From assembly GCA_002269645.1 (NCBI GenBank), contig NIVC01000907.1:248001-312000 (forward strand): a DNA stretch of 64,000 bases. The letters run 5' to 3'. The stretch's first letter is position 1. Every line of letters starts with the position of its first letter. Both the position numbers and the translations under genes were made by a program. The DNA comes from Macrostomum lignano (Eukaryota). The notes below the pieces were generated by a model that was not told the DNA's origin, made no database searches, and saw nothing but the letters and a program-made list of their open reading frames with translations. Positions 20,701-51,500 of the stretch are shown here, in pieces.

Positions 20701-21361
20701 GATTAGTGTGTTTCAGACTGATTTGTGTGTGTGATTGCAGACTGATTAGTGTGTGTGATTGCAGACTGATTTGTGTGATTGCAGACTGATTAGTGTGTGA
20801 TTGCAGACTGATTAGTGTGTGATTGCAGACTGATTAGTGTGTGATTGCAGACTGATTTGTGTGTGATTGCAGACTGATTAGTGTGATTGCAGACCTTAAA
20901 AATTCATAGTCAAGGCCTCCCTCACCAGCAGAAGCAGCCGGGTTGGGTCTCTTGCTGCCATCCTCGGCTCCGCCATTGCTGCTTCCAGAAGCAGCAGCAG
21001 TGGAAGCAGCAGCGGCAGCAGCAGACCGTCTCCTCCTGGCGCCAGTCAGCAGGCCGTTGATCTCGCGCTCCACCAGGCCAGCCTGCCAGCTCAGCGGGTC
21101 GTCCCGGTCGATGCGAAACCTCCGCAGCAGCAGCCAGCAGATGTGCCGGCAGAGGTCGCGGTCCCGACGAAACTCCGAACAGCTGCAGTGGTGCGGATCG
21201 CCGATCAGCACTTTGATGTGCTTGGGCGAGCCGTCCTCCTGCAGCAGGAAGCCGGTCGGGCCGATCTCACGCAGGATGAAAATGGTGGCGCCCAGGGCCT
21301 GCTCTTGGCGCCAGTTTACTGTGTCCGAAATAGTGCGCCGGTAAGGCGTGGAGCGGGACAT
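17729..21361 (-). CDS. ZSWIM2: E3 ubiquitin ligase ZSWIM2/MEX (SWIM-RING-ZZ-RING), 4 exons, 544 aa
   Basis: Exons 21361-20926, 20453-20124, 19547-19330 and 18379-17729 total 1635 nt. SWIM finger (CSC...CRHICW), RING (CPIC...CGNSIHMRC), ZZ finger (CSGC...YRCSVCRDFHMCQRC), DYEALMALD and a second RING (CPLC...CRHVMHSGC...CPLD). Confidence 0.9.
18490..19300. repeat. 27-bp minisatellite (54-bp dimer) in ZSWIM2 intron 3
   Basis: GGGATCATGGATCTATTTGGGATCAAT alternating with a GGAATCTAT variant. Confidence 0.95.
20470..20893. repeat. About 22-bp minisatellite in ZSWIM2 intron 1
   Basis: GTGTGATTGCAGACTGATTAGT repeats. Confidence 0.92.
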
Positions 21362-21430
21362 TGTGCTGCAGTGCAATGTATGCAGATATTTCTCTGTATG
21401 CAGAACTGCTTATATAGAAATTTTATAATA

Positions 21431-21653
21431 GGGGTTTGTAGCCTAGTGGTTAGAGCGTCGGACTTACAACTTGAAGGTTGGAGTTCGATTCCAGATTCCA
21501 CTGGAACAAGATCCCACTTGTGTGGCGACCCCCCCCCCAGTCCTTGGACTAAACAGCCATATGCAGCCTTCAGATGGTTGTGCAATAGCTGCAGCTGAGC
21601 TTTCAATTGCACATTTGCCGATTAGGGCACATGCAATCAATTATTATTATTAT
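21431..21653 (+). mobile_element. Internally deleted, CpG-decayed copy of the same tRNA-SINE family
   Basis: Head and 3' half align with 46897-47195. The Deu/Nin-like core is missing. (TTA)n tail. Confidence 0.85.
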
Positions 21654-24600
21654 GTTCCAACTCTTTTTTAGTACCCAACAAGCAGATTGATTGTTCCCAA
21701 AGACTGCTTGCAACTCAAAGAATTTCTGCTTGAGTTGCTCTTTACTATACTTTATTATAGGTGTATACTTTATTATAAGTGTATACTTGAATTTATGTAA
21801 TGTATTTTTGTAAAGGTAATTTTCTTTATTATATTATTGTGGCAGTTGGGTTGCCACTTCAATTTTGCAATTCTTTTAATAATTTTGCATTCAATTTACT
21901 AAGTTTTTGAGAATTAAATGTGCCCCAACTCCCAGAAATTTTTATATATTTTTTCAATAGTTGCTTATTTTGTCACTTTCCTATATGTTGTCCTTTGTCC
22001 CAATTTTTGTTCCTCCAATTTGTCCTACCTATGAATCAATGTTTCCTACTCTTGTTTGTTTTTTTTTCTTGTAATTTCTACGTAAACTGCCATTGCTCAA
22101 CCTTGTGCCCTTCCTTTGCCCAACCAGCTGCCCAGCTGCCCATCCAAGTTTTGCCTCTGTTGTTGGAATTTATGTTAACTATTTATTTTGCATGCTTCAA
22201 GCACTGCTAATTCAAATTCTGCTTCTTTCTTTCTCCTTTATTTACCTTTTTCAAAAACTTACTCCGGCTCTGCTCATCGAATCATTTTGGTCGCACCATA
22301 ATATTTATTACCTGCCTAAAATATTTAATTTTCTAACCCTTAGTTAATAATAATAATAATTAATATTAAACAATAATATTTTTATTAACAAATAAGAAGC
22401 CTATAGTCTATTTTGAGTTATTGCCTATGGGGTATAAAACAAACCAAGTTCTTATCTTAAAGAAAGTTTTAAGACAAATCCATTCTGTAATGTGAGAATT
22501 ATGGTAGTGGCAGCTCTACCCTACTGAAAGTAATATCTGTGCAACAAATTGACACTCTAATTTGCATGTCAGGATCTTTGGCATCCACTTTTTGAACAAT
22601 AATGACAATAGTGCCGCTAAATGACTGCTTTGCTACGATTGCAACTACTCTCCCCCTGGAATTCGAGGACCCCGGCAGTTGGAGTAAACAGAAGAAAGAA
22701 TTTCCATTGCAATTCATCTGTGCAACGTTTCTGGACTTATTTGTGCAAATGCAATGCCAATTGGTTTCTAAGAAACCCAACTTCAAAACCTGACCCCAAT
22801 GGACCACCAAACCCCAATTATTTTTTTTTCTTTCTCCACCCCCATCTCAATATTTTAATTTTAAAGAAATACAATATAAAATTTAAATATCTATTGTCGT
22901 GTATTGAGAAAAGAGTTAGGCCTACAAGCTGGCTATAGTTACAATTATAATATTGAATGTAAAGAGTTCATAGTTATTTAATATGCTTGGCCAGCTAATA
23001 TGAGCAGTGTTATGAGCCCAGAGCCCTATCCAATGATGATACCAATGCATTTGATTTTCCTGTTGCAAAGCTTATTCATTATAAACAAAAAGTTAGTTTC
23101 TAGAATCCTAATTTTCTAAACAAAACAAAAGCTCTATGAATTATTAATATCTATAAGTAAGCTATAAGTAAGGCATATAAAAAGATGAACGTTAGGTTTT
23201 CTCCTATCTAAAGCAAAAAAAATTTTACTGTAAGAGTGAAAAAATGTAAATTGTTATGTAAGTAAGCCTAGCCACCATTCTCCGTCCTCCGCATAAATAA
23301 TGTAGAAATTCTTAGGGCCTAAGCAAAACCTGCTTCCTAAAAGAATTTCAATAAATGTAGTATAACGTTCTTCTACGTCCTCGCTTAAAATACGATAATA
23401 TAAAATTAATTATGAACCTGAAAGTGAAAAGAGACCTAAGCTGATTCAGCATGTTCTACATTAGGCCTAGCACGACCCACTGCTGCAGCTGCGAAGTTGT
23501 TGAACTAAGACCGAAATAAATTTGTAATTGTTACTTAAATGTTTTGTTAATAACTGTAAAATACTAATTAAGTTTTAAGGTAATTACATTTTGTAATGTA
23601 ACACCTAATTAAAAAAACAGATTTGTTAAACGTAGTAATATTTTTTTAAATGCATTTTTTTCATAGAAGCTAATTGTCACTTGTCAGTTAAAGTACATTA
23701 CGTTAAACGTAGATATTTCAAAGGCGCATATTGTGTTTTCGTGTACGATTTATTAAATGAATGCTTTCATTCTGCTTCAATTTTCAGTTTTTAACTTTTT
23801 TATTTTGTTTCCTTTTTTCTGGTTGCCAGGCAACAGCAATCATTAGGCCCTAATTGTAGACATAGACCCCTACTGGCCTACCCTATCATAAAATTTAACA
23901 GCCAAGCCAAGTTGAGCCAACAATAAGTCTAAGAGTTTTATTGATATTGCTACTTATTAATTAAAGCAACTATAGGCCCTAATATGTCTCTTGCCAATTA
24001 TTATGCTTTCTAGCTACTTTTAGTTAGTCATTTTGTCTTTACAGGTTTTTATTGGCCTACCCTAACCTCTTTTCTATCATAGTGGAGATCATGTAAATAT
24101 AAATTAATATGCTGGAACATAAAACAAACAACGGATGTCAATAATGATTGTTTGTCAATGTATATATGCTAAGTTTTTTATGCCATTATAACATGCCAGT
24201 AGAATTATTAGGTAGGCCCTACAAACTATTTACCTAGGCCTAATTATAATTTCTAACCAAATTTATGCCAGAAATTCTTAATTTCCATTCTTTCTTCTTA
24301 GGATTTATACCTAGTTCCCCAGTGAGCTCTGTGAAACTTATGTTCTTGCGCTCTTATCGAGTCATGCAAAATGAATAAGTCTTCACAAAAACAAATCAAC
24401 TTTATGGCTGCAGCCCAATGCAAATCTAACTAACCAAAACCACAGTTGCCCGCCCTCGAGCAACTGAGACCACAAATATATATTAGCACTAGCACTTACA
24501 TAAAAGGGAGGTGGGTGCTGAGTGCATGTACAAGCTACATGACTCAAAGAGGGGGGTTGGACTTCAATCATACAGAAACAAAAACTAAATAATATATAAA

Positions 24601-30598: not shown

Positions 30599-33500
30599 AT
30601 GGACAGTTACCTAGCCACAAAATGCATTGAACTTACATCTGTCAGCCTGTCAAACTCGTCATCAGTGTCTGTTGACTCATCGGGAAAATTGGCTATTTTA
30701 GGATGGTAAGAGACTTTAGATTGTATTAGCATTACATTGGCTGGCTGCCTGCTGACAGACAGGTTTTTATATTAACCCCCTGAACAACCACAGCAAGCGA
30801 GAGATTGTCCTCTACGATTTTGATGATCAGCAAATTGTCAAGCGAATCCAAGGCGACACCAAATGGGACGTGCACTGCGCCGTCTGGCAGAAGCTGCAGG
30901 ATGCCAGCAGCTCCAAGCTGTTCATGGCGGCTGTGAGTTCGATTAGCTCATTGGCTTTAGTCACGTGACTGCCCTGCTCACTGTGCTCATCCATTAGTTG
31001 CATCATTGTCAAAGTCAAATTACTTTTTTTAACTTATTTATCATGTAGCAATCATCATCCAGGTATATCACTTATTGTAGATCCCATCATGCAGGTGTTG
31101 ATCTCCAATTAGAGATCCCATCATCCAGGTGTTGATCTCCAATTAGAGATCCCATCATCCAGGTGTTAATCTCCCATTAGAGATCCCATCATCCAGGTGT
31201 TAATCTCAAATTAAAGATCCTATCATCTACGTGTCAATCTCCCATTAGAGATCTCATTATCCAGGTAAAAGATCCCATTACCCAGATATTAATCTCCAAT
31301 TAGAGATCCCACCGTCGAGGTGTTAATCTACAATTAGAGATCCCATCATCCAAATGTTAATCTACAATTAGAGATCCCATCATCCAGGTGTTAATCTCCC
31401 ATTAAATATCCTATCATCCAGGTGTTAATCTCCAATTAGAGATCCCACCGTCGAGGTGTTAATCTACAATTAGAGATCCCATCATCCAGGTGTTAATCTC
31501 AAATTAAAGATCCTATCATCTACGTGTCAATCTCCCATTAGAGATCTCATTATCCAGGTAAAAGATCCCATTACCCAGATAATAATCTTCAATTACAGAT
31601 CCCATCATCCAAGTGTTAATCGCTAATTACAGATCCCATCATCCAAATGTTAATCTCCAATTACAGATCCCATAATCCAGGTGTTGATCTCCCATTAGAG
31701 ATCTCATTACCCAGATATTAATCTCCCATTAGAGATCTCATTACCCAGATATTAATCTCCCATTAGAGATCTCATTACCCAGATATTAATCTCCCATTAG
31801 AGATCCCATTACCCAGATATTAATCTCCAATTAGAGATCCCACCGTCGAGGTGTTAATCTACAATTAGAGATCCCATCATCCAAATGTTAATCTACAATT
31901 AGAGATCCCATCATCCAGGTGTTAATCTCCCATTAAATATCCCATCATCCAGGTGTTAATCTCCCATTAAATATCCTATCATCCAGGTGTTAATCTCCAA
32001 TTAGAGATCCCACCGTCGAGGTGTTAATCTACAATTAGAGATCCCATCATCCAGGTGTTAATCTCAAATTAAAGATCCTATCATCTACGTGTCAATCTCC
32101 CATTAGAGATCTCATTATCCAGGTAAAAGATCCCATTACCCAGATAATAATCTTCAATTACAGATCCCATCATCCAAGTGTTAATCGCTAATTACAGATC
32201 CCATCATCCAAATGTTAATCTCCAATTACAGATCCCATAATCCAGGTGTTGATCTCCCATTACATATCCCATAATCCAGGTGTTGATCTCCCATTAGAGA
32301 TCTCATTACCCAGATATTAATCTCCCATTAGAGATCTCATTAGCCAGATATTTATCTCCCATTAGAGATCTCATTACCCAGATATTAATCTCCCATTAGA
32401 GATCTCATTACCCAGATATTAATCTCCCATTAGAGATCTCATTACCCAGATATTAATCTCCCATTAGAGATCTCATTACCCAGATATTAATCTCCCATTA
32501 GAGATCTCATTACCCAGATATTAATCTCCCATTAGAGATCTCATTACCCAGATATTAATCTCCCATTAGAGATCCCTATAAACCTCCCTCCCGCCGCCCC
32601 AACTGCAGCGCAACAATGTCTGCCAGGTGTTCGACTGCGGCGCCAGCGGCGGCTCCTCGCCCGCCTGCCTGGCCAGCCTGCGCGGCCACTCGCGCAGCAT
32701 CAGCTCGCAGGACTGGAGCCGGCTGGGCCCCAACCTGCTGGCCACCTGCTGCATTGACGGAGCGCAGGTGAGCGCCACTCTGTCGGGGATCTGCATGTAT
32801 GACGCGCCTGACTCTTGGAGTAGCAGGGTTCTCAGAGCTTGCAATGTGAAAGTTCGTCCGCCCCCTGCTTGCAAGTTAAGCAGAGTTAGTCGCGGTTAGT
32901 TAGCGGCTGTCCAGTTATCGAACCCCCTTCAGTAGAATGCATGAGGGGGCTTCTGGTGCAAAATTTTTCACGTCCTCCATAATCCCATTAAATCCATCCA
33001 TATTATCCCCGACAGAATCAGAAAAAAGGGGGGTCGCCCTTGCTCCGAAAACTTCGAACATAATCCCATTAAATCCATCCGTATTATCCCCGACAGAATC
33101 AGAGCACAACCGGTGTCCTACTGTTATTCTGAGCATAGCAGCTCCGAAAACGTCATCCATAATCCTCCTAACCTATCCCCCAAAATCCATCTATATTATC
33201 AGAGCATAACAAGTGTCCTACATAATCCACTGACATCCACCCATAGCATGTTCGAAACAATCAGAAAATAATCTGCATTCTTCTCCCCACATTCAATTTT
33301 CAAAGCGAAACCAGATCCCAAAGACTTTAAACCCTCAGCGCAGGGTGCTCACCCTTTGAAAAAAATCTAAATTTTCTCTAAAAATGTTTCCAGTTGTCTC
33401 TCCAGGTTCTTATTATACTCAGCCTAATCCATTGTACAAATCCAAATACCAATGCAAACTAGAATGCAGCGAGTACATGAGAAAATATTGGCCCGGCATT

Positions 33501-36500
33501 GATATCAATGTCCCTAATATTAATCTAGCTCTCCAAAGACACTGGTTTCATAAGTATGGAGTAACCTACGTAAAAGATTACGACAGCTACTATAACTTTG
33601 CAGAAGTTATAAGGCAGTTGTAGTTGGCAACTACAAGGTTGTACCTAGCGGTTTATATCGTAATTTTATAAATCTGAAGACGACTCACATTCTCTCTATA
33701 ACAATTGTTAGCACAAACTCTTCCCCGTTAAAATCAAAACCAACTCCATCCTCTGTTTCAAACTGCAGAACGATTTCATGTATCTCTCTATTACTCAGAA
33801 TCACTCTTTTCACGGGGTTCGGCTTTTGCACAAGCATTTTGCCACCAGCAACAGAGTTTGAAATGTTAAAAAGTATGTTGGTTCGTTTGCCTTTGAATAT
33901 CCAATCATGGCTCAGATTGCTACGAATTAATATATTCAAACCTTTGACAATGTCAGCGATATTTGGCGCCAAGTACATACCGGATATTAGCCGGGACACA
34001 GCAACAGTGCCAGGCGCCTGCAGCGGGCTTTGGTCTGTGGCGCCACGCGGCCACCATAAACTCTCTTTTCAAATCCCAACTCGCGATACCAAGTGCCATC
34101 TTTAAACTCTACCTCTGCGTCCTTATGAACTTGCAAGATAACTCTCATGACAGTTAGATCATAAGTTAATCTAACAGGGAACAGTTTATTTTCTGGTTTG
34201 CTTTCATCCGGTATCTCAAAATGCTTTCGTTTAGTGAAGACTTTCTCCAAGAAGTAATTATAAGTATCCACGCTCTGTGTGCTGACAGGAAATATCACAA
34301 CCTCTGTTGTAGTACGCTTCCATTTGTAATAAAACTTGTTATTTTCCGCTGTCACATTGGGAACATTTGACCACCCAGTGAAATCATTGAGATAGACGTG
34401 GTAATTCGCCTCGGGATCCAAACGAAGTGGTTGCTCCAATTTTTGAATGAAGATTCCGTTTGACTCAGTAATGCGACCCGCTACAGTGATTGGAATGCTC
34501 TCCTTAGAGTGTGAAACAATGTTGTTTAGTCTTTCGGCTATGGCTTCCATTTTTTATTGAAAAAAAAATTATTCAAACTTTACTAGACGAGTTATTTATC
34601 ATATTAACCTTGATTTTCCTCTCAAATGCATAGATAATAAACAGATCAACAGCCGTTGCGGCACCAAATTCTTTCCGCTCGATATTAGTCACAATGTTAA
34701 CAGGGCTATTGTCTGTAGGCATTTGTCTAGCAGTCACATCAACACCAAATATTGGATATAGTTTTTATACTGCAAGGTTGTCAAAACAATACCGTTATTC
34801 TCTTTGACAGCCAGGTCCGACAGTTCATTGTAAAACTTACTAATCTTGTTCTCCGAGAAATTCCCATTTTGTGGCAATGCAGGGTATAAATTGTCACTGA
34901 TCTCATGTTGAATCGATCGAATGTTTCCATGTAGATATCTACCTACATTAGTTGTATTCCTCATAGTGACAATAATGTACCTTGGATTGCTACAGGAGCC
35001 TTCTTTAATGCAAATATTGTGTCTTGCGTCATTCCGCTCATCTCTGCACATATAAGCTGTATAAGCAACATCAATGTCTTTCTCAATCGCCTTCAAGTAT
35101 TCAGCTTTGAGTGCAGTCTTGGGCTCAATAATTTCTAAGTACAGCTCCACGCTAGTTAGCTTAATCTCCATCGATGTATGATTGGCCCCCGACCAAATTC
35201 CTCTGTTCCGATCATCTCTAGTCAGTCTAAATGTGTAGCTAAAGTTGCTTGTCAACCGATTGAAACTATTACAGAAACCACTCATAAACCTCAAAGGTAC
35301 AAAAATATCTACAGACCTAAACAGCGGATTCTTAGCAGCATCGTTCTCACCAACAAGAGCATAGTTGTATCTCTCCTTTCTCTTTTTGTAACCAAGGTCA
35401 TTCTCATCTCCTGTCTGTTCATTGGGGATGAATCCAGCACCGCTCCCCATCTGAATAAAATCCGGGTTCTCAATCAAGCACTGGGTATCATAGACCACAC
35501 CAAAGTTTGCTATTCTTTCCAATTCTGTACTTCCATTGGACACATTAAACTCTTTGAACATATAAGCCCAGAAATTACTGGTTAGTGCGACATCCGCATT
35601 GTGTAGATCATCATTTGCATGAGCGGCGTCTGCGCCTCCTTTAGTTTTGAATTGATACGTCATATAGAAGCCGCTCCTTAGACTGTGCACACTAACCAAA
35701 GACGAACATCCATTGTATGTAAATGTCAGTGTTTGACCTGGACCCAAATTAGTTTCATTCTGATTTTCCTGACTGGGAACTCTTACCTGAGTCGCTTTGA
35801 TTGTGCTATCATCACTCAAAATAGGCTTGTTAATTTTGTAGAAAACCGGTGTCAGGGGATCGTTCATTTTTCAACAAAAGAAAAAATATTTAAAAATGAA
35901 GCGGAAAAGTTCATATCATATCTCTGAACTAGAAAAGCTGGCGCAGGCAGAAAAGAGAGTTACAGGGCTAATCAACAAAGAACAACAATCTTACAATGAA
36001 TTCGTCCAAGCAGCCACCGAATTTCACAAACCCGGATACACAGAAGCGAAGAAAAACCTCGACACTGTGAAGGAAGCAGTTGATGATATTCAAGAGAGCC
36101 ACTTGCAAAACACATTGGGTAAAATCCCATCTTCACCGGGACAACCACAGGCTCAGCAACCAGGACAACCAGTGCAGATGAATGTGAAGGATAACTTTTT
36201 TGGCCCCGTATTGGATGATGGAAAATATATTTTTGGAATTAGTGCCTGGCGAAAAAATATTACCGGGGAACCGGCGGATTACAACATTGAAGTGACAAAG
36301 GAAACTATTTCAATCAATAAAGGCGCAGAAACTAAACGAATCCCCTTCACTCAAACTTTACTTGATTACATGACTAAAAATCAGAAAAAAAAGATCCGAG
36401 AAGCAGCTAAAAAATTACAAAGATCTTGTTACCTTTGCTCTCGATAGGGACATAGATATGCTCAAGAACAACGGTGTTTTGAAAATTTTACATGAAAAAG

Positions 36501-39500
36501 GGATTGTCTTGAACAATTTTAAAAAATACAAATACTTTAAACAATGGTTTGGTTTGCCGGATCAAGAAGAGGTCATAAGACAACCAACACAACAACCACC
36601 ACAACAACCACAACCACAACAGCAGCAACCACAACAGCAGCAACCAAAACAACAACTACAACAACCACAACAGCAGCAACCACAAACACAACCACAACCA
36701 CAACAACCTCCACCGCCACAGCAACAAATCACACCCGAACAAGTACTAGAAGCGCTTGAAAAAGCAGGGCCAAATGAGATTTCCCAGTACAGAAACCAGC
36801 GCCCAGATGAATGGCGACAATTAGAACAGTTCTCCCCAGAACGAATGAAGCGAATCAATGACAGAGTATTCACACCTAGGCTACAGCAACCCTCACCAGG
36901 AACATCCTTCTCTGACCAATCATTCGAATCACCACCAAGCTCTTCCGGAAAAGGCATGCCTGAATTCTACAAGCGAGTAGCGGTTCTTCTAGGAGCGGCA
37001 AAGACCGGAATGAAAGATGAGAATAGAAAAGAGTTCGTTCACATCCTCAATAAAATGCTTGAGAGAAAATACATCGATAAGAGGGCGAGAGAGCTTCTGC
37101 TTTCGCGGTTCAACAAAAAATGATTTATTTCAAGTAAAAATGCCACTTATTTTCGAAAAAGACATTGACAAATACTATGACAAAGAGGAACTTAATCTCA
37201 TTAAACGCGGATCTGGACTTTTCCCTGCAGGCCACTATCCAAGAAAAGAACGCTCTGGGAATGGCCCTGCCGATTTGATCGCTCAGGGGGCCAAGATTTT
37301 TAAGGTCATTGGAGAGAACAAAGAGAACATCAAGAACGTTGCCGAAGCGGCCGGCAGTGTAGTCACAGCAGCCAAAAAGATTAAAGATACGGTTCATGAA
37401 ACCCGGAAATCAATACCAGATATTCAACCCCTTGCACCGAGTGCAGATAGTGTCGATCCAGCCATCTACGCAAAGATGAGAGCTGAATATAAGAAAGGAG
37501 GCGGTTTTAAATTTGACTAATTTGGTGCACCCTGACGGTAAAAGAGGTGTGAGGGTGTAGGACTAGTCGGATGTAGGACTAGTCGAAAAAAGACACACAC
37601 ATACACATCCCGAAAAAAGACACACGCGTCTTAAATACACAAGTTTAAAAAGAAAAAGTTTTTTTACATAAAAAATGGACTTCACAAACGACTTTCATCC
37701 CCACTGGACACGCAATCAGATAAAATTTGCTCACAACGAGATAATTCCAGGGCACTTCCGATGCATTGTTGTTGGCTCATCTGGGTCAGGGAAAACCTTC
37801 AGAGTTTTTAACATGCTCCTCAGACCTGGATTCCTCGATTATGACACACTACATATCTATTCACCCACTCTGTATCAAGATGAGTATAAAATGCTAGTAG
37901 CGGGCCTACAGAACAAACTCAACAAGGAAGATATTATTCAATGTTTTAGACATCAAAAAGACCTCAACAGCAACCCGGAAGTTGTAGCCACTGAATACGC
38001 AAAGCACATCCCAGACAATGAAAAATGGCAAAACATTAAAGTTTTCACTTATGGAGATCCACAGATAGATCCTAAAACTAAACTCTTACCTCAACCTGAT
38101 GAACTAGAAAAGGGGAGAAAGCACCTGATTGTCTTCGATGACTGCATGACCGGTCCCCAGAAACAGATAGAAAATTATTTCACCCGGGGTAGACATAATA
38201 ATTGCAATGTTATTTACATTGCCCAAAACTGGTTTGAACTGCCAAATAAAACAATTAGAGGTAACTGTAATTTGATTCTCCTTTTCCCAACCATACCACA
38301 GGATCGACTGAAACGATTTTATAATGAGGTCATTGCCCCAGCTCACATTACATATCCAGCTAAGAACTCTAACAGAACAATATCACAGGAGGAATTTGTT
38401 AACATATGCTATGAAAAGTGGAACCAACCCTATCAGTTTGTCATGATTAATAAGGAGAAAAGAATTTTACTTTAATTTTTCATTTAAAAAAATGTCTATT
38501 AATTTTGCTGGTGAGTCAACTACAGGCAACAGCACTCTCACAACTTCCTTCCTTGACAAGCGCTACATTAACACTGATGAAGAGATCCCAGAGATCAAAC
38601 TGAATAAAAACAGACTGAAAGCCCTAGAGCGCTCCATGCACCAGTTGCAAATAAACATGGAAGATCTCAGGCTTAAAGTAGCTAGGCAGAAGTTTGAAAG
38701 TGATAAGCTTTATGTGCCGTTGTTAAACGCAACTAATGAACTAAGGTCAGAAATAACTTCGATAGTCTCGCTAATCAACGGCTTAAGATCGACAGTTAAT
38801 CTTCTGGGAAATTCCACTGATAGACGGATGCGTATTCTTGAAGGAGGAGTTTTCACAAACACAGCTAAAGTAAATAATTTAGAAGAGTTCATGAACCAGT
38901 CAACAGCGTTGCATGATAGAATTAAAGAAAACGTCGCAACCAACACAGGTAAAGTAAATAATTTAGAAGAGTTCATGAACCAGTCAACAGCGTTGCATGA
39001 TCGAATCAAAGAAAGACTTGAAGCATTAAAGAGAAAGGATGTATCACACAGTAGCTATCTAAACGGAATGTATAGCTCTTGGGGTAAAATAATAAGGAGG
39101 CTTGATCGTCTGGAGAGAACACTCAATCTTCGTGATATTGCTATTGATGAAGCAGAATCTACTGCTCGTCCGGTCATGTCTACAGATCGAGTAGAAGGAG
39201 CTCTGGACCCCGCCGGAGTAATCCGGCACGCTCTCAAACGTCAGCCGCCCAGCCGCTGCCTGCTGGACTCGCGATCCTCCGGCGTCACGAGAGCCGCCTA
39301 GACAACCGGCGGTGCAGATGGAATTATCAAAAAGAAAACAGATCTTCAAACCGGATAGTTTTATATTTTTTTTATTTTTTCTAGAGAAAAAAATGGCCCA
39401 ACAAAATTCTCTATACGATCAGTCTCAATACGCTGAACCTAAAATACCGACAGCACCAAACCCAATGGCACCGAATTCGAACACACAAAGCCTGAATGCA

Positions 39501-42500
39501 CCGAATCTGAATGCACCTCAATATGAGCAACAAAAACTCTACCCCGTCATTACTTGTAACTCTCAACAGTTTCGACTGGTGGAGATTAAAAAATGCGAGA
39601 TGATCTTGAAAAAAATATTTTCCACAACACAAAGAAAATTAAGCGCTATAACAGCCACTGTAAATTTTTCGACTACAGCAATATGATTCTAGGATCTGTG
39701 TCTGTTCTATCTGGATCTGCTGCGGCTGTCTCAACGTTGCCAGTCATCACAGCCCCAATCGCAATCCCACTCGGCTCTGTGGGTGCTGCATGTGGACTTA
39801 TTTCAGCAATTACTGGAGCATTAGGGCGAAACAGGCGAAAAAAACTAAAGCAGCTACAGGAGAAGCAAGTAAAAGAGAAAGGGGTGCACACTTCAATCAT
39901 AGGGTACATTTCAAGGGCAATCGAGGATAAGTTCATTTCAGAGGATGAGTTCAAAACCATTCAGGATCTTTATGAACAAACAATTCGAATGAACTTGAAC
40001 ATGGTCGGTACTGATGACATGAGTCAGCTGAGAAATGAACTCGAGAAAGTTCTTCAACATTATGTGGAAAGAAAGTCGGCAAGAAATTCACAATGAACCC
40101 TTATGAAACACAGGTACGAATAATTTCCTTGTAGGTCTTTCGTGTTTTGGTCATTGCATACAAAACAGTCATGCACAGCTCACCGCAAATATCACTGCTA
40201 AGACCTTGGAGAATAAAGTCTGAGCGATAAATTTTTTTATTATTTTTTCCCTTCATATAATTTCTTAGCTCTTCTGGTACTGCCGTCCCATAGCTATCGA
40301 AGTAGTAACACTTGTGCTTGCGATCGGGATCAATCACCCAGCAAACCCAATGAGATCCTGGTTTATCGGTGGTGTCAAAATTCATGATGCCGCATTCTTT
40401 TCTTAGAGGAAAATCAGGCAGAGTGTCCCTCATAAATATTCCTCTAAAGTTTGGGATTTCCAGTTCGTTAGCCAAATCTTCAAGAAAGTTATTTGTTGTC
40501 ATTTTTTATGAGGTTTATTAAACTTTCTCTTAAACCTAAACCTAATCTCAACCTCCTAAACCCAATCTCCTAAACCTAATCTCCAGTGCCCGAACGGTAG
40601 ACTGTTAATATTGTCATCAAAAATGAATCTTTTATTATCTGCACCTGACAGTCCAATCTTTTTTGCTGAATTGTGTGAATAATATGGTTTTTGGATTGTA
40701 GCTTTGAGAACTCATGTGATGTCTTTTTGTTGCAATTCAAGGCGTCTCTGTATTCAGCTTCATTAATTTCCTTCCTAACCACGCGTTTTGGAATTCCCTT
40801 TGATTTTTTAATTGGGTCTGACGACTCACATTTTACAAAATAGGACTTTGCTCTCGACCCAATGAATTCAGTGATTATGTCACCAGCAATCTCGTCCTTC
40901 ATTTTCCCAATCACTTTCTTGTTAGTGGCGTCAAACACTTGATCGCCATTCTGTGTCCTGAAAGATTCATCATACTCAGACAAGTCAAACAAATCTTTTT
41001 GCTGCAGCATGTCCTGATAAATGTCTTCTGTTTGAATGTCCATAATAAAACTGTCTGTGTCAGTGTACAAGAGTTTCATTTTATCCTTGTACTGCTGCTT
41101 CATGCCATAGAAGAACTGGTACATCAGACGTTTTGATTCGTCGAGAACAGTGACACCTGTATAGATCGGCTTGCGCAGCGTCACCTTGGTTTTGTAAAAT
41201 ATGATCACACCTAAGTAGCTATTAAAGATATGGAGTTCTTTGAATGTTGGCTTTGACATATTTGCCTGAATAACAGCAGGCTCTGATGAGGTAACAAGTT
41301 TCAGGTTTGTTCTTTTCCGCTCATTTTCAAGAGTCTTGCCATAGACAGAGTTGTTGGCCAACTTAAAGAGGTTCTTGTCAAAGTCGTTGGTTGCTTTGGT
41401 CCTAAACTGGGTGTTCTTATCAATGTAGGGTTTCATCCACGCTTCCTCTGTAAATGTAAGAGCCCTGTGAACTTTGGTGACCCTGCAACCAAGTGAGATA
41501 AAATACTGAAGCAGTTTGTAATGGATTTTGTAACGTGTCTTGTTGTTTAGATTCTGTGTTAGTTTCTCTGTATGTTCTTTTTCTGTTCCTGACAGGTGCC
41601 AAGTTCCATTATTATCATTGGGAGTTTCGATTATTTTCGGGCACTTGATGTTCTCTGGGAAGGGTGGAAAGTCAGAGAAATAGTCGTGAAGCTCTGGTGG
41701 AATGTAAACATCAACCTCATAAATGGCAGCCAATGAAAAGTCCCATTTGAATTCTGATGAGGGTAGCCATCGAAAATCTCTAACTGGAAGATCTTGACTC
41801 ATCGCCCACCCGTAGAGATTATTAGCGTCCAAGTAAGTAATGTAGTTTGAGGGCTGCTCCTTATTGTAAGATTCAATGTAGGGATTGTTTGCTTTTGCAT
41901 ACCTGTTAACGCAAATTGAGATCCCCCTCGCTTTGACGATTCGACAAAATTGTACATGTCAATGTCTGTAAGAAGTTCAATGTACCAATCTGGATCTTGA
42001 TCCCATTTCATTTTAAGCAAAGATTCCCAGCTAGTGGCAGGCAGAGACACATAATGTGCTGGATCGAGGCCATATGCTGTGTACCAGGTGTATCTGAAGG
42101 TTTCAAACACATCGGCCAGCAGAAACACATCTGTGTAGAGGTAAAGCAGGTGATACTGGAAGAAGTTTTGACAATTAAAGTAATTATAGACATGCTTCGC
42201 GTGCTCATAGTCTTTGTCAGAGATTCCAGAGTCTGTTAGCTTTGAAAAGAACTTCTCCTGTGGTGGTAAACCTTCTTCAAATACGTGATAACCAGTAATA
42301 TTCTCATAGGGGTAGAAGCCTTTCTTTCTTAAAAGTTTAAATGATTCATCAGTTCTTGCAAATATCTTTGTATATGTACATTGTTCATCTTTTAGATTCT
42401 TGCTTAGTTCGTCTAGACTGGCAGCTAGAAATTGATATGAATCCTTCAGTCTTATTTTACCTTTACTGTTACCCGAATTATCCTGTTTAATATCAACACA

Positions 42501-45500
42501 CTTAAACTTCTCCTTGTTCTCTGCGATGCAGTCAAGGTGTATGTCTGAATCATGCCGATTTTTTCAACTATTAAATGCATGTCATAGTTCTTTGCGTTGT
42601 GACAAAATATCGTTAGATCATGAATGTTCGATTTTAGCTTTAGATTACAGGTGTTATGCGCTGCACCTCTAAATTTCCCAGTAAAGTGACAGTGGTCCCT
42701 AACGGTGGGGTTTTTAATATCAGTGCAAGTTAACTGTTTCCTGCAGATGTGGCAATGAGTTGCTGATAGGAAATTGCTTTCATCCTCCTCAGTCATCATT
42801 ATTGGAACAGGTTGAAGAGTGCTAATCACTCTTTGCAACTCTAACATTCTGGCAATAAACTGCTCCACACACTGCTCTCCAAAGAAATAATTATACTCAA
42901 CAAGTCCTTTTGTATTAATAAAGGCATATGCTACTGAATTGGGGACATGTCTTTGAGTTTGTTTTTGAGTTTGAGTTTGAGTTTTTTTGAGTCTCTGGCA
43001 TGATTGAGCATTCGAAATCAGCATATACAACAAATGGGAGCTTCTCCATCTTGTGATAGTTCTTAAAACGGAGATACTTCTCTTCAGCTGAAGGAAGAGA
43101 GCAATTGGTCGGGTGATCCTCGCATGATAATTCATGCTCTGATAGTTTTTCAAGACGCTCAGGTCCACTGTAATGCTTAAGGCACAAGCGGCAGATGGCA
43201 ACAGCCTCGTGATGATTATTCAACTGCTTGTGAATGAGTCTTGAAAGATCTTTAATCCAAACATAGTGAGCCTCCTCTAGTAAATTACCAATCACTAGAA
43301 GATCCACTTCAGTCCGCCTTTTCCCCTCAGGATCTAAAACGTCTTTGCTACATCTGACCGGTTGAACTTTCTCAGTTTTTTCACTCCACTCAAAGACTGT
43401 GATTCTAATTTTGTTATTAAACACTTCTTCTAGCTTTGGGATCTGAGAGATCGCCAAGCCTCCTTTGTCAAACCTGATTCCCTTCTTTTCGCATTCAATG
43501 AGATAGTGCTTGAAATAATTTTGATAATTTGAGGTTCTTTCGGGGTTGTGAGAGACACTATCATGATGAAGTGCAGAAAGAACTGCCCATAGAGCACAGC
43601 AGTTGTCTTTATTTTTAACATTTATGCAAGCTTTTTTTGCCGGCTAGCTTATGCGGGAGATCTATATAAGAGGAGGCTTTAAGTGGGTCATATTTCATGA
43701 CCATAACAGTCGCTCTTTGAATCCCTCCCACGACCCATCCGGAACCTCTGGACGTAAACGCTTCAATTTTCTTAGTGACATCTTGAAGGAAAGGATCCAG
43801 TGTGTCTGTAGGGGTGAATGGCTTTGCCTTTGTTGTCATGTAATACTCGAGATGTTCAGTGGGTTTCGCAGGCATATAAAACGCAATCTTGAATGATATC
43901 TGTAGTTTAAAGGTCTTGCGTGTTTTGAGTGTGTGATCAACAACTGATTGGATGCTGTCTTTATAGTCGTAGATGTTTGCGGTGGTGCCGTTTATTGGGA
44001 TTGTGTACTCTATGTAATGTTCTGTAAACTTCCTCTGTGCAAAATTAATCTCTTCAGTGGCAAGCTCCGACTCTTTTAAATGGATTAATTGCTCTAATTT
44101 CTCTTGTTCCTGCTTATTTTGTGGGTACTTTGCTTTTTCACCAGTGAGAGTTTCATATTTGTTAACTAAGTTGCGACTCCTCTCTTGGTGTTCCTTTGCA
44201 GGATTTTGTATAGGCGCATACTGGTTGGATTCTAATTGTTTTATGATTTCCAACTGTTTTTCATAGCTTCCCAGGTAACCAGGGTCGGTGTTAAACTTTT
44301 GTTTACATGCTTCTCTTAGTAAATTACTTTTGTCTTGAAATGAGACGCCTTTTGAAAAATATTTGTTGACTAAATCTTTTGCTGGATTGGCTTTGGGCAT
44401 TTTTTTCTCTAAAATATAAAAAAATTTTGAGGGTTACCACCCTGATAGAAAAGTTGAACTGTTTCTACATCCTATCAGTAGCTTTAGGTTTATGATGCTG
44501 GATAAAGTGGGGGTTTAAACCTCATCACATCCGCATTATTGTAAACCCAGCATTGTGCAGTGTCATGATGGCTTTGACAATGTCGGACTTGCTTACAGAA
44601 TTTTGATGCTCACAATCATCATGATCATCACAATCATCAAAATCACGGCAGCCCTCTCCTGCCTTAATTGTTATACCTTTGTCTCTTGCAATCTTTTGTA
44701 ATTCTAGCTGGTGGGCTCTATCATTCCCAGCTTTAACAGCAGTTGCTACACCTCCAGCTACACCACCTGCGGCACTTACGGCACCTGCAATGATTGGGAT
44801 AAGAGCTGCTAATGGTAGGATTCCTCCTGACTTTTCATTTGTGATGCTGTGTCTTTGTTCATTACATTGAACTATTTGCTGCACGGGATCGATTTTTACT
44901 TTGGCACCTTTAATTGATATAAGACCTGGTTTCTTTGATTCAATGATTTTATTGAGTTTATTGATGGTTCTGGTTTCAATCTTTGTCATTTTTTATTTTA
45001 ATATTTTAATTAATTTCTGTGTCAGCTGGTATCACTAGGAGTTCAGCTCTAGTGAATGACCGCGTGGGGGATTTAGGGTTAAAGGCCTGAGATAAAAAGT
45101 AATACTCTCCAGAGTCAGAGGTAAAATGTCTGTCTATTTTATGTACATCAAGGCTGAAGTATGGATCTGTAGCTCTTCTTTTGGTGTCTTTCTCTAGCTC
45201 TCCAGGTAGATATAAAAAGCGTAGAAACTCAGAGTTTGTCAGTATGTATGGTGATTCAACTCTTGGAAGCTTAGGGTAGTTCGAGGTGTGTTTTGTGTTG
45301 TGCGTGTTGTGTGTGTTGTGCTTGTTGTCTGTTCTATGAGATGCCTTAAGTTTGACAGTGTCTTGTTTAATTGCATGGGACGGTTTCAAACCAGTCATAC
45401 GTGTGACTTCATTGTTCAGTTGCTCTATAACAGTAGGGAGTCTTTCTGTCCACTTGGTATAGTATTGCCCCGCACTCAGTTTGAGTTCTTGCGCTGTCTG

Positions 45501-48500
45501 CTTAGTGAATAGTCTCTTGGCTAGAGTTAAATTAAATCTCTCAACGTACGCTTGGTCCCTGTGCAGGTCTGTTCTTCCGTAGCGAATCTTAGTATTTTTC
45601 TTTTCCATAAGGGATTTGACTGCACCCATGAATTCCTTACCCGGGTCGGTCATAAAGATTTCAGGGTAACTAAGGGGCGAGTTTTTATAAATATCTTGGA
45701 GTGCGGCTGCAACTGCTTCTGATTGTTTAGTCTTTAGTGGGCGAGCTTCCTTATATCTGGAGGCAATGTCTGTAATTGTGAGAGCATACTTGTAGCCTGA
45801 GTCATTGGGGAGAAACAGAAGATCTGCTTGGTGCGCCTCATTAGGTTTATAAATACTGAAATGGGGCCTTTCAAATTTTACTGGTGGGAAATAGACTTGA
45901 AAGACAGCCTGCTTAGAGAGCCATTTTTCTACTGTAGCTTTTGGCTCTTTACTCAGCTCCATGAGTTTACTAACGGCATTTTTGCCTACAAAGAATCCTT
46001 TGTCGCTGTAGTAGAGTTTTTTAAGTTTCTGATCTGTCATTTTTTAAAAATAAATTTTTAAATAATATAATGCAACGCTCTGGTGGTAAAATAGATTCAC
46101 ATGGACTGATAGAAAAGCTTCCTCATCCAAACAAAGGCTGGACAGTTCCCGGGTACAAATATTGCGGGCCTTTGAATCCACTTGAAATACAGCTGGATGG
46201 ATACAACAACCCAAATCCTGGACATGAGCCTGTGAACGAGCTAGACTCTGTCTGCATGTGGCACGATGTTAAGTATAGAGATTTTCCAGAGGAGAAGAAT
46301 CGCTGGGACAAAGAAATGCTTAGGAGATTAGACAATATGGGGACTTCAAGCGGATTTCGTGAGTCGATTGCTAGGAAATTAGTCAAGGCGGTTATTTTTG
46401 GTAAGACAAAATTGGGGTTGGGGATGTACGCCGAGGGCGGGTGTTTGGGAAGAGAGGGTGGGTGCACGGGGAGAGAGGGCGGACGCTCGGGAGTAGGGTT
46501 TATTTTGCACGCACCAAGTGAAGTACTAGGAAACTGCTGAAAGAGCTGGGGTTGAGAGAGACGCTTGAGTCGGAAAAGATTATTCGCAGCCAAGCGCAAC
46601 AGCCGCATTTTGAAAAGGGGTGGGGTAACTGCTATTTGCTGAGGGAGCGCAGCTTTTGCTAATGTACAAGTTCCACGCGTGCTTTCCTTCTCTTTCCTTT
46701 CTTTACCTTTGTATTGCACGCACCAAATAAAGAATTAGAAAGACTGCTGAATAGTTTACATTGATAAACAACTGAAGGACTGAAGCGACAGATTATAGTC
46801 GCTATATAGTTTATTAGTTTATTATAGTTTTTTCATGTGGTAAGCAACGTGGCAACAACAAAGCATGCAGCAGAAGACAGAATGCCTATCGTAGGTAAAT
46901 AATAATAATAATTGATTACACAGATGTGCAACCGACAGCTCAGCCGCAGCTATTGCGCAGCTCATCCGAAAGCTGCGTACGGCTGTTCAGTCCAAGGACT
47001 GGGGGGGGGGGTCGCCACACACCCTCAATTACCCCAGCTAATGCTGGCACCCATTTTACAGCTGGGTGAACTGAAGCAATGCGGAGTAAAGTGCCTTGCT
47101 CAAAGACACAGATTGTTGCAGTGGGATCGGGAATCGAACCCCCCAACCTTCATTCAAGTCGTGAGTCCGACGCCCTAACCACTAGGCTACAATCCCGTAG
47201 GTGCAGGGTCTAAACTATGCAACAATATAAAAGGTTTCTGGGTGAGCGCCTGCTTTTTCTCCAGCCCTTCTCTCACCCGTCTTGCCCCACCGCCTCTCAT
47301 TCCAAACCTGTCCTCTGGGCGCCTCTCTCTCTCTTCGCAACTAGCTCTACGCTCTCCTAGTCAAACAGCCACCTCAGAAAATGAAACCGCTGGTTTCAAA
47401 TTTTGAGGTGGGTGATCTGAGTTCTGCACTGCTTCTCTCGGCAACTAGCTCTACGCTCTCCCGAGCTCATTCTATTTTTAGTCAAACATAACACTAGCGA
47501 TCTCGCGCTGGGGGGTAGAGGGGCGCCTGGGAATTTTGAGTCTCCCGTTGTACTGAAATCTCCTTCCCCTTGAGCTCCTCTCCCTTTCCCTTCCCCAGCA
47601 GTCCGGGCCAGAGCACTGGGCTCTCTTTGCACAGGGGCGCCACCTCAGAAAATGAAACCGCTGGTTTCAAATTTTGAGGTGGGTGATCTGAGTTCTGCAC
47701 TGCTTCTCTAGCCTCCGCAACTAGCTCTACGCTCTCCCGAGCTTAGTCAAACAGCCACCTCAGAAAATGAAACCGCTGGTTTCAAATTTTGAGGTGGGTC
47801 TACACTGCTTCGCTATCCAGCTCTCACCCGCCCTGCCACTCACTGCATGCAGTCCGCGCATTCCGCCATAAGTCCCCTCTTCTCTCTCCACCCACCCTCC
47901 CTCTGCAATTCACTTCTGTGCAGTGCAGCGCCAAAGCCAAAAAAGAGAATTGCAGAGGGTTGAGGGTTGAGCCGAGCGGGAGGGGGTCTTTCTTTTCCTA
48001 ACCTCCGCAACTAGCGGCTCCGTTTTCTTCTACATTCTCCCGAGCTTAGTCAAACAACCACCTCAGAAAATGAAACCACTGGTTTCAAATTTTGAGGTGG
48101 GTGATCTCTTCTACGCTCTCCCAACGCATTGTATGGGTTTTATTTTTTAGAACTTACGTCTACACTCTACAAGGTACAACCTTCTGGGTGATCCCTCCGT
48201 TTTCTTCTACGCTCTCCTAGTCAAACAACCACCTCAGAAAATGAAACCAGTGGTTTCAAAATTTGAGGTTGGTGTCAATATTAGTAATAAAAAACTATCC
48301 AAGGATAACTTGCTATTATTATAGCTTCATGAGTTGCTAAATAAACAATAGATAGGTAATTTAAAAGTTAAAACAACAAGCCTTCGTCCAGTTCCTGTTG
48401 CAGCATCGCAAGGGCCTCTGGCAAGTATGCCATCATCGACTTCAGCTTGTGTAGGGACATTGCAGATCTTCGTAGCACCGGATATTTCTCAGCCTGGTCA

Positions 48501-51500
48501 GCCAATTTCATCAGAAAGTTGGTCCACTGGCTGGTGAACGGTGCACGTCTTTTCAGCTCGTTGAACTGTTCCTTAGTGGAACCCGCTCCATTCTCAGAAA
48601 GATCCTGCCGAGCTGTAGACCGTTTGCAAAGCCATGCTTGCCGTGCCGTTCAAATAGTTTATTGAGGTTGGCAATCTGTACAAGCACCGCGTCGATCGTG
48701 AATGTTCCCTGCTTAAATTCTTCTAGAGAATGCTCTGGCACAGGCTCACCGTTGGTCTTGTAGGCCATGCGCAACTCGTCCAGAGCCTTGCTGATTTGTG
48801 ATTGCTTGTCGGCAGTTTTCGCTAGCCGACCATTGATAGTTGGCTTCACGATGGGTGACCGAGCAATTGCATTATATTAATCGGCCCAAACATTCCAATT
48901 GTCAAGATCTTTACTAGAAAAAACCGCCTTGATGAAGTTCTCCAGATTTTTTATGTAAACGTTGTCGCCTGCTTGCATTTCAGCATCCATGGCAAGATCC
49001 AGAGATTAAGCAAGTCAAAAATAAAAAGTTGCTGGCAAGGCGAGGTGAGGCGGGGAGAGACGGAGCAGGCAGGGTGAGGCGAGGGGCGGTGTGAATCGGC
49101 TGTTTATACGAGCTATACCACACGGAAAGCACATGTGGAGCGCGTGGCATGGGTTTTATTTTTAGAACTTACGTCTACACTCTACAAGGTACTACCTTGT
49201 AGTTGGCAACTACATGCAACTGCCTTATAACTTCAGCAAGAAGTTGATTTAAAGTCTTTGGGATCTGGTTTCGCTTTGCAAATTGAATGTGGGGAGAAGA
49301 ATGCAGATTATTTTCTGATTGTTTCGAACATGCTATGGGTGGATGTCAGTGGATTATGTAGGACACTTGTTATGCTCTGATAATATAGATGGATTTTGGG
49401 GGATAGGTTAGGAGGATTATGGATGACGTTTTCGGAGCTGCTATGCTCAGAATAACAGTAGGACACCGGTTATGCTCTGATTCTGTCGGGGATAATACGG
49501 ATGGATTTAATGGGATTATGTTCGAAGTTTTCGGAGCAAGGGCGACCCCCCTTTTTTTCTGATTCTGTCGGGGATAATATGGATGGATTTAATGGGATTA
49601 TGGAGGACGTGAAAAATTTGCACCAGAAGCCCCCTCATGCATTCTACTCCCTTCTAATCAGAATTTTGTTTTTCTCAGGCCTGCTGCGTGTGGGATCTGC
49701 GTGCCTCCACTCGGCCAGTTGTTATCCTACAGAGCGTCCTTGGCGCCTCCGAGGTCCGCTGGTCGGACTCCAACGAGCACCAGCTGGCTACGTCGCACGA
49801 CCCGGATGTCCGCATCTGGGACCTGCGCAAGGAGCATCCGAACTCCGAGCCGCTGCTCAGACTGCCATTGAAATACCAGACTGCTCACCTGAGCAAAATA
49901 CGCGACTTAGACTGGTCTGGGGACCTGTTACTGACCTGCTCGCAGGATTCCCGAGCCAAACTGTGGGACTCGGAGGCCGAGCCAGCCGGACTGCGAATGC
50001 TGTCCGAGGGTATCACCAACGATATGGCCTTTCATCGGGCGAGATTTGCGCCGTTTCGCGGTGGCTTCGCCGCTGTAACCGGAGCTAACAGGTTCTGTCC
50101 ATTGCTTTCAGCTTTGCAATTTTGGATAGGGGTATAGCGGATGCAACTCCCTTAAAGAGAGCTAAGTTACTATCGATACATATCGGCGGAATCTAGCACT
50201 GTTTAATAAGTTACTATCGATACATATCGGCGACACCTAGCACTGTTTATTAAGTTACTATCGATACATATAGCCGACACCTGGCACTGTTTATTAAGTT
50301 ACTATCGATACATATCGGCGATATCTAGCACTTTTTAGTAAGTTACTATCGATACATATCGGTAGCGTCTAACAGAGCAGTTTTTAATACATGTCAAAGA
50401 TTACCAGCACCGTTTATAAAGTTATTTTCAATGCATATCAAATGCGCAACGTACATTTCCAGACGGGCCGATTCGCTGACACTGTGGACTAACCAAAACA
50501 ACGGCCTCGTCCAGGTGTTCAGCTTCGTCGGCCATCAGGACACCATCTACGGCTTCGACTGGCTGCAAGCGAGCCCCGGCGGCAGCTGCTCGCTGGTCAG
50601 CCTCTCCAGAGACGGCACCCTGCGGCTCTGGCCAATCAACAACAGCCTGTTGCGCCTCTGCGGCTCCCTCTCGGCCGGCGACGACCGCGAAGACGCCGAT
50701 GCCAACGAGGCCGATGCCGCGGAGCCTGGCGACGCCGCCGCTGAACAGCAGCTGGTGGAGGACAGCGAAGACGCTGCCACTGACATCGCGGGCTCGGCCA
50801 CACCGACATCGTCCGCAGTTGCCGCCCCGTCCGCGCCTGCCAGTTTGGACTCTCGCGCCTGCGGCGGCGAGGCCGCGGATGACGGTGCCGATCCGGGACT
50901 GGAGAACGGCGGCGTCACCCGGCCGATGCTCATCTCGGCGCCCAAGTCGGCAGCGCAGCAGAGCGGCGGCGGCGGCTCCGCACAAAAATCTGCGTCGCTG
51001 TCCGGCGTCGGCTTGAGCAGCCCCTCGTCCGCTGCGACCCCGTCTGTGGCGGCTTCGGCCGGAGCCCAGCAGCAGAACTTGCTGCTTCAGCCAGTCAGCC
51101 TGCGGTCCGAGGTTCGACACCTGGCCGAGTCTTTGTCCGACCGGCTGAAACTTGTGCAGCCCGGCGATGGGGCCGCCACTGCGCCTGCCGGCTCTGCGGA
51201 GCTGGACAGCGGCGGCGATGTTGGTAAGCTTGAGACTGTGATCTTCTGGGTGAGATTTTGAGCATCTGTGTGAGATTTTTAGACTTTATGGTCGTCTGTG
51301 TGAGATTTTGAGACTTTAGAATTGTCTTTGTGAGATTTTGAGACTTTAGGATTGTTTTTGTGAGATTTTGAGACTTTAGGGTCATCTTGTGAGATTTTTT
51401 AAGACTTTATGGTCGTCTGTGTGAGATTTTGAGACTTTAGGATTGTCTTTGTGAGATTTTGAGACTTTAAGTCACCTGTGTGAGATTTTGAGACTTTGAG

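Follow-up and report, generated by a model that had tools for sequence, protein, structure and literature searches.

The window analysed here is a 64,000-bp stretch of Macrostomum lignano DNA (contig NIVC01000907.1 of assembly GCA_002269645.1, positions 248,001 to 312,000, renumbered from 1). It contains a Polinton/Maverick element in which we find an array of five 41-bp imperfect palindromes. This array is probably part of a dispensable, hairpin-built accessory module of ~2.7 kb carried by few copies of a large Polinton family. Tentatively, we favor the reading that it acts as a multi-hairpin RNA unit without an open reading frame (ORF), the functional steps of which we infer.

A preliminary description of this DNA, made from its letters, had reported the five-copy array and its spacings. 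Recomputing the starts (47370, 47641, 47756, 48059 and 48230; spacings 271, 115, 303 and 171 bp) confirmed both. The copies are:

47370-47410, unstranded: palindrome copy 1, 16 of 19 arm positions paired
47641-47681, unstranded: palindrome copy 2, which together with 47682-47755 makes up the insert-free 115-bp unit
47756-47796, unstranded: palindrome copy 3
48059-48099, unstranded: palindrome copy 4, centre ACT
48230-48270, unstranded: palindrome copy 5, centre AGT, 14 of 19 positions paired, linked to the downstream gene end in sister contigs

The pairing of 16 of 19 positions given earlier holds for copies 1-4, which add one G-T pair, but not for copy 5. Each palindrome half consists of two 7-bp boxes around a 5-bp A/T spacer, intact in every copy, and the same three arm mismatches are present in all five. 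Searching the window with the left arm (up to 3 mismatches) gave nine matches against 0.02 expected; every one was within the array and no half-sites were found outside it. As DNA hairpins, copies 1 and 4 have fold z-scores of -4.6 to -5.8 and copy 5 has -2.8. No long ORF covers the array (the longest stop-to-stop frame is 82 aa), which bears out the earlier statement as far as long frames go, but an ATG inside each palindrome opens 19-36 codons. The AAAATG in each palindrome (47376-47413 and equivalents) is the start context of 10 of the 13 core ORFs, and a pyrimidine tract ending in TAG precedes each palindrome. This AAAATG lies nine codons before GAG/GTGGGT, which we take to be donor-like, and the palindromes might be taken for repeated micro-exons; sister contigs are unspliced there. 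The left arm GAAAATGAAACC (47376-47388) presumably resembles an interferon-regulatory-factor site.

The palindromes sit in longer units. The empty unit, copy 2 to copy 3, is 115 bp, and the others are this unit with small deletions and inserts; the palindrome flanks are common linker modules, not target-site duplications. Three inserts, of 150, ~190 and ~60 bp, occupy three different unit positions:

47489-47638, unstranded: insert 1, 150 bp, 2 nt before copy 2, without flanking duplication
47809-47997, unstranded: insert 2, ~190 bp, with its own long imperfect hairpin at 47870-47990
48123-48183, plus strand: insert 3, ~60 bp, a copy of the element's own subterminal 49141-49198
49141-49198, plus strand: source of insert 3, lying in 49124-49237, a stretch of 114 bp of which some sisters have a tandem duplicate

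The preliminary description had unique inserts separating the copies, one of them copying the element's inner terminal inverted repeat (TIR). Inserts are indeed present, but there are three and not four, the copy 2-copy 3 unit being empty. Insert 3 does copy 49141-49198 (91.5% over 59 bp from 48125-48183; 0 of 200 shuffles as good), but this donor lies ~50 bp inside the strict TIR (49248-49648) and overlaps only the TIR's degenerate extension. Insert 1 also occurs elsewhere in the genome: among the pieces listed, a 1570-bp contig matches exactly 47489-47638, with 12 differences, and has single-copy depth (212.5 versus 221.9 for host flank). The hairpin of insert 2 is a second kind of hairpin that the preliminary description had missed. 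It is 120 nt long and folds as RNA with z-scores of -4.5 (plus strand) and -5.1 (minus strand), 0 of 200 shuffles being as good. Against Rfam, insert 2 gave sub-threshold microRNA matches only, and the 20 matches of 47200-48360 up to E 5 included none reaching its gathering score. Copy 5 and insert 3 each have a 12-bp match to the left subterminal region; 39 comparisons were made, 2 of 200 shuffles did as well in each of these two cases, and the matches were not relied on.

How widespread is the array? Contigs of 4 of 24 public runs, one of them guessed to be RNA, were placed on 45400-49900 at 80% identity or more; summed contig depth is not copy number, and only large ratios are used. They delimit one feature:

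46457-49174, unstranded: subfamily-specific accessory segment with the array, ~2.7 kb, edges known to ~150-bp bins

Depth drops steeply on entering this segment from the PLA2 gene and from the TIR in all four runs. Relative to host flank, depths in runs X1, X2 and X7 are 360, 357 and 156 for the integrase and PLA2 bins, 616, 516 and 184 for the TIR, 17, 11 and 8 for the array, and 12, 13 and 6 for the adjoining orphan gene. Core genes are deeper than the array by factors of 19, 22 and 33 in these runs, and the ratio is 4.5 in the run guessed to be RNA; taking the orphan gene's depth as 1, that of the array is 0.81-1.44. Given these ratios, the palindrome is not a dispersed high-copy repeat, and few copies carry the segment. 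At 80% identity or more, the array is largely absent from the Polinton family; arrays diverged below that level would be missed, and the TIR, itself non-coding, is shared at that level.

A few sister copies do have it. Single X7 contigs spanning the inserts are each ~3 times flank depth, which suggests that a handful of sister copies carry the array. Sister contigs contain insert 1 with both flanks; one has insert 2 flanked by copies 3 and 4, differing at 12 of 340 bp, and another joins copy 5 to the orphan gene, accounting in X7 for the whole depth just past copy 5. Among the differences and joints listed, inserts 1 and 2 are common to sister contigs 1-4% diverged. At this divergence the set of inserts seems not to vary; contigs end at the repeats of 46-71 bp, hiding gained or lost units, and further array variants may be masked by the abundance of SINE joints and loose ends. 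Comparison among sister copies, proposed earlier, thus bears on the inserts but not on palindrome number.

More distant relatives were sampled as 83 Polinton loci (3 viral plus the best 80 of 400 metagenome matches) with 41-53% integrase identity and a different gene order. Neither a blastn match to 46450-49650 nor a palindrome family of at least three was found in any of the 83, using a script that recovers four of the window's five copies; the loci are mostly fragments, and both TIRs are seen in 1 of the 39 of at least 4 kb, which weakens this negative. Two palindrome copies occur in one of the 83, and the clustered direct repeat in 1 of the 39 longer loci is a duplicated ORF start. One locus (L012:5265-5713) has three partial copies of an ORF start region upstream of the integrase. 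Another, at a distant Polinton (L079:431-771), has two 73-bp units with a 26-bp palindrome, 268 bp apart, just past the last gene, either within the element or in host DNA. The exact pattern (24 specified bases) had 0 matches in viral, metagenome and prokaryote genome contigs. Short-core matches in viral contigs (91 stretches) were dismissed as chance: the best has 28 of 41 positions of the 41-mer, and there is one site in each of the 80 stretches listed. Absence from related elements, which the preliminary description thought would tell against the array, is therefore mostly the case (core genes 19-33 times deeper; 0 of 83 distant loci), but not in the few sisters.

Could the palindrome instead be mobile in its own right? 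A high-copy host repeat next to the array served as positive control:

46921-47196, minus strand: tRNA-derived short interspersed element (SINE), Rfam tRNA at 47122-47196, matching 21429-21661

This SINE reaches 11,000-22,000 times flank depth in three runs. A host miniature inverted-repeat transposable element (MITE) was rejected, the array being at 8-17 times flank, although a few stray copies are possible; the flanks, which are shared linkers and not target-site duplications, also speak against it. The earlier concern that the palindrome might be a host MITE dispersed outside Polintons fails likewise, array depth being 0.8-1.4 times that of the neighbouring non-repeat gene. Very unlikely, in our view, is an origin as a block captured from the host, or as a nested non-autonomous element of low copy number (tandem MITE ends set head to head over 3-bp spacers would be an example), that inserted in a single Polinton lineage. 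A SINE did insert right beside the array, insert 1 has a homolog elsewhere in the genome, and the orphan gene does not start in the AAAATG context seen at 10 of 13 core ORFs, which would make the module foreign. However, depth is not above that of the neighbours, the window holds no orphan outer half-sites, the leader of the array is homologous to a tract inside the element, insert 3 comes from the element itself, and the X7 depth past copy 5 is one contig running into the orphan gene. A Helitron was rejected for lack of an HUH gene and of matching termini. A Replitron was rejected on the same two grounds (available text of PMC10288648).

The SINE junction (46891-47196) is also found in a sister contig, and because of this the Polinton subfamily may have spread after SINE insertion, as a defective element. 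The first part of the accessory segment also contains a 44-bp direct duplication (82%; 46499-46541 and 46708-46751).

What the array might do is suggested by the signals around it:

47226-47233, plus strand: TATA box (TATAAAAG), pointing into the array, a putative promoter
47249-47335, plus strand: C/T-rich leader, C+T 0.79; such 70-nt windows make up 0.17% of the element
48286-48291, plus strand: AATAAA, 16 nt past copy 5, with a second at 48340; a candidate polyadenylation signal
48368-48990, minus strand: orphan accessory gene, convergent with the array
49030-49108, minus strand: TATAAA and C/T-rich leader, upstream of the orphan gene
46442-46483, minus strand: C/T-rich tract that aligns locally, in inverted orientation, as a homolog of the array's leader (equalled by 0 of 200 shuffles)

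The array fills the slot between the TATA box with its C/T-rich leader and the AATAAA, and the other TATA-plus-tract site precedes the orphan gene. Of the element's 18 TATAAA sites, 2 have a C/T-rich tract after them, compared with none of 56 in the window's host part and none of 308 in the 83 related loci. Because both have TATAAA and a C/T-rich tract upstream, and the array slot then an AATAAA, the slot and the orphan gene thus appear to converge like two genes, the array being the one without an ORF. As read from the letters, these positional signals argue for a transcribed hairpin RNA, at which the preliminary description had only hinted. RNA polymerase II would read from the TATA box at 47226 to the AATAAA at 48286, giving a ~1-kb RNA without a real ORF. 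In this RNA five 20-bp hairpins would form, or the copies would pair with each other into ~41-bp duplexes, and insert 2 would add its 120-nt hairpin. Such an RNA could be a source of small RNA (a hairpin-RNA locus) or a double-stranded RNA decoy. In the predicted fold neighbouring copies do pair into duplexes, and copy 1 folds better on the plus than on the minus strand (z-scores -4.4 and -1.9). In the run guessed to be RNA, contigs cover 47441-47689 and 47770-48107 unspliced; level, strand and ends are not readable from them and they were used neither way.

Several points weigh against this RNA reading. The strand bias rests on one G-U pair, and canonical pre-miRNAs are longer than these hairpins, which have a 19-20-bp stem and a 3-nt loop. 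The start, end and strand of the transcript are predicted from signals in the sequence, and any small RNA from it is hypothetical; the TATA-plus-tract thresholds were chosen after both sites had been seen, and the element has 35 AATAAA sites. Looking for a target, we found a longest exact match of 12 nt between the array and the element's gene block, and none by blastn in the host part of the window. Copy 5 loses pairs and gains no compensatory ones. Finally, the window copy shows decay in its split polymerase and inserted SINE, and growth of the array may therefore postdate the loss of function. A bolder form of the hairpin-RNA reading, which we regard as quite unlikely, is an updatable virus-borne hairpin-RNA gene: the hairpins would mark paste-in sites, and dicing of the RNA would yield guides that, together with the orphan protein, act on host genes or competing Polintons. 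Were that true, it would be the first Polinton non-coding RNA gene found and a eukaryotic analogue of a repeat-spacer array.

As for the history of the array, four distinct substitutions separate the five copies. One closes an extra loop pair, two flip palindrome centres (that of the main palindrome and that of an 11-bp palindrome nested in the right arm) and one is unexplained. Three of the four therefore perfect a pair or flip a centre, compared with 8-9 of 123 possible substitutions (binomial P about 0.001, by a rule written after the data were seen and with the direction of change assumed). Arm homogenisation and spacer inversion are described as products of polymerase template switching (available text of PMC8604942). 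Insert 3 was templated from 1 kb away, and its donor stretch is itself duplicated in sisters: a joint 49237->49124 in X2 and X7 (2 of 4 runs) puts the 114-bp stretch in tandem with 13 letters between. The substitution pattern and the templated insert 3 together suggest that hairpins form in single-stranded DNA and drive rearrangements. A 115-bp unit with a 41-bp hairpin core would have duplicated locally. The hairpin would then stall a polymerase and provoke a template switch, on strands displaced in Polinton replication or in host repair, and the switching would leave small deletions, loop flips and pasted-in fragments in the linkers. Formation of insert 1 needs access to chromosomal DNA. Two observations speak against this model: correction of the three arm mismatches is seen in no copy, and the junctions show no significant clustering at hairpin edges, 3 of 13 lying 4 nt or less away.

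The array could also be a neutral by-product without function: a hairpin arising by chance would have set off duplication nearby and the insertion of templated fragments, in a part of the element that is non-essential and decaying. We rate this as somewhat unlikely, though a near competitor of the RNA unit. It accords with the template-switch signature, which requires no selection, with the decay of the element, with the absence of the array from most of the family and from all 83 distant loci, and with a substitution divergence of the palindromes (0, 0, 1 and 4 of 41) that is not clearly below that of the linkers. Against it, none of the five palindromes is broken by an indel or insert, the mapped rearrangements all being in linkers (in part an ascertainment effect; no half-sites were found); the three arm mismatches are retained in all 5 copies; and the array exactly fills a promoter-to-polyA-like slot.

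Programmed acquisition of spacers, CRISPR- or integron-like, is in our estimate highly improbable. The repeats are conserved and palindromic, the inserts come from the host genome and from the element, an integrase is nearby and insert 1 ends only 2 nt from a hairpin base. But the inserts are 60, ~190 and 150 bp long at three unit positions, one unit is empty, the repeat is not duplicated on insertion, and sister contigs 1-4% diverged share inserts 1 and 2. Nor did Pfam reveal a Cas or tyrosine-recombinase family among the element's ORFs. CRISPR arrays have uniform spacers, each between two full repeats; the spacers here are neither, and a CRISPR-like array was rejected. The earlier phrase "repeat-spacer array that gains inserts" is accordingly apt as history, but not in the CRISPR sense.

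The orphan gene bears on another possibility, that the palindromes work as DNA. They would bind a dimeric host or element protein as an enhancer or operator array resembling the baculovirus homologous regions (hrs), and so boost the orphan gene or the integrase-polymerase gene block; we find this doubtful, though it too competes closely with the RNA unit. The dyad of two 7-bp boxes and a 5-bp A/T spacer per half is intact in all copies, and the irregular spacing is like that of hrs, whose palindromes bind IE-1 and act as enhancers (available text of PMC6669502). The array also travels with the orphan protein, a candidate binder. In the window copy, a stop (48877-48879) and a change of frame around 48580 interrupt the orphan gene; sister contigs read differently at these interruptions, which may be peculiar to this copy or errors of assembly. 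One natural homolog, P0122 (212 aa), is 40% identical over the first part and 59% over 68 aa of the last part; P0123 and P0124 were rejected as spurious repeat proteins. There was no Pfam, PHROG, PDB or usable Atlas match. Two structure models have a pLDDT (predicted local distance difference test) of 40 and 43; the protein is predicted to be all-helical and could be a palindrome binder. Against protein binding stand the single locus in the window, the lack of any DNA-binding family found for the orphan protein, the position of the array, which adjoins the 3' end of the orphan gene and has a TATA box of its own upstream, and the lack of an array in most family members.

An internal hr-like replication origin has, to our mind, very little probability. 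The DNA hairpins are stable, and terminal palindromes are proposed as replication primers in some of the virophages and of the Polinton-like viruses (PLVs) (available text of bioRxiv 10.64898/2026.07.28.741278). Those palindromes, however, are terminal and accompany non-pPolB genes, whereas the element here has pPolB and intact TIRs; family members without the array are hundreds-fold deeper, and Pfam found no initiator or helicase gene among the element's ORFs. As it is confined to an accessory segment absent from most family members, the array is unlikely to be a core replication origin.

The element itself is delimited as follows:

32931-49648, unstranded: Polinton/Maverick, 16,718 bp, AGTAG...CTACT ends, 6-bp target duplication CCCTTC
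32931-33331, plus strand: left TIR, 99% over 402 columns to 49248-49648
49248-49648, minus strand: right TIR

It apparently sits in an intron of a host WD40-repeat gene; the match of a contig from the run guessed to be RNA stops at 49676. An inverted match beyond the strict TIR (33598-33646 versus 49187-49239, 87%) was also seen; perhaps the TIR formerly measured ~700 bp, and the right side has since lost, or the left side gained, the stretch 33332-33597. Pfam domains comprise DJR capsid, A32 ATPase, adenoviral protease, protein X, rve integrase and PLA2, together with DNA_pol_B_2 (pPolB). The polymerase is split over several frames and, with the tRNA-SINE at 46921-47196, marks this copy as decayed. 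The polymerase piece at 42452-43135 has an endonuclease VII-like motif (PF02945). The host is a eukaryote rich in minisatellites, and two host ORFs, 17729-18388 (RING-finger) and 20834-21361 (SWIM-finger), are both on the minus strand.

In its TIRs, 6-bp target duplication, pPolB, rve integrase, capsid, ATPase and protease, all of which are present, the element agrees with animal Polintons/Mavericks of the adintovirus type (background in the available text of PMC6431247 and PMC12166617). It has both the PLA2-like and pX-like genes described in such Polintons (available text of PMC8502044). The non-coding regulatory parts of animal Polintons are almost uncharacterised. "Palindrom" and "hairpin" occur 0 times in the main texts of the Polinton papers PMC8097293, PMC10748475 and PMC8502044, as does "palindrom" in that of PMC11296320, and in the full-text literature, subscription papers, Repbase entries and supplements excluded, we found neither a non-coding RNA nor an internal array of palindromes described for a Polinton. 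The array is real and belongs to the element, has apparently not been described before, and is restricted to few copies, in a subfamily that has decayed. Should transcription of the slot be confirmed, it is a candidate Polinton non-coding RNA and a hint of how such elements might counter host silencing or compete. Even if neutral, it marks a subterminal region where DNA of the host and of the element itself is gained beside a hairpin repeat, possibly one way in which these elements come by their cargo. The view that Polinton replication starts at the termini is unchanged by the array.

Baculovirus hrs, to which the preliminary description had likened it, share with the array irregular imperfect palindromes within longer direct repeats in non-coding DNA (available text of PMC6669502 and PMC4535591). 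They differ in lying at several loci per genome (seven in SpltNPVII) as opposed to one here, in a core of 24-30 bp and not 41 bp, and in the origin and enhancer activity shown for them with IE-1; the array here, moreover, contains foreign inserts and is present in a minority of copies. An IE-1-like gene gave no Pfam match among the element's ORFs, the orphan protein being unclassified. The layout therefore supports the likeness, but the single locus (9 of 9 window matches) does not. Since the multi-locus feature fails and no activity is shown, the array is not classed as an hr. The terminal palindromes of Halocafeteria virophages and PLVs are of similar size (52 nt) and belong to the Polinton supergroup, but they are single and next to the target-site duplication, in contrast to a five-copy internal array 1 kb inside the TIR (available text of bioRxiv 10.64898/2026.07.28.741278). 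Template-switch hotspots at quasi-palindromes, with their arm-perfecting changes and spacer inversions, match 3 of the 4 substitutions (available text of PMC8604942); they explain mutations and not function, and the three arm mismatches here are not homogenised. The hairpin-RNA loci of Drosophila (hp-CG4068 type) are mRNA-like tandem hairpins with fast copy-number change, often with transposable element and gene fragments in them, and the array shares with them tandem hairpin units containing fragments. They are, however, host loci with proven Dicer-2 small interfering RNAs, antisense targets and longer stems (available text of PMC10317233), whereas the array lies inside a virus-like element and both its RNA and the duplexes of that transcript are predicted.

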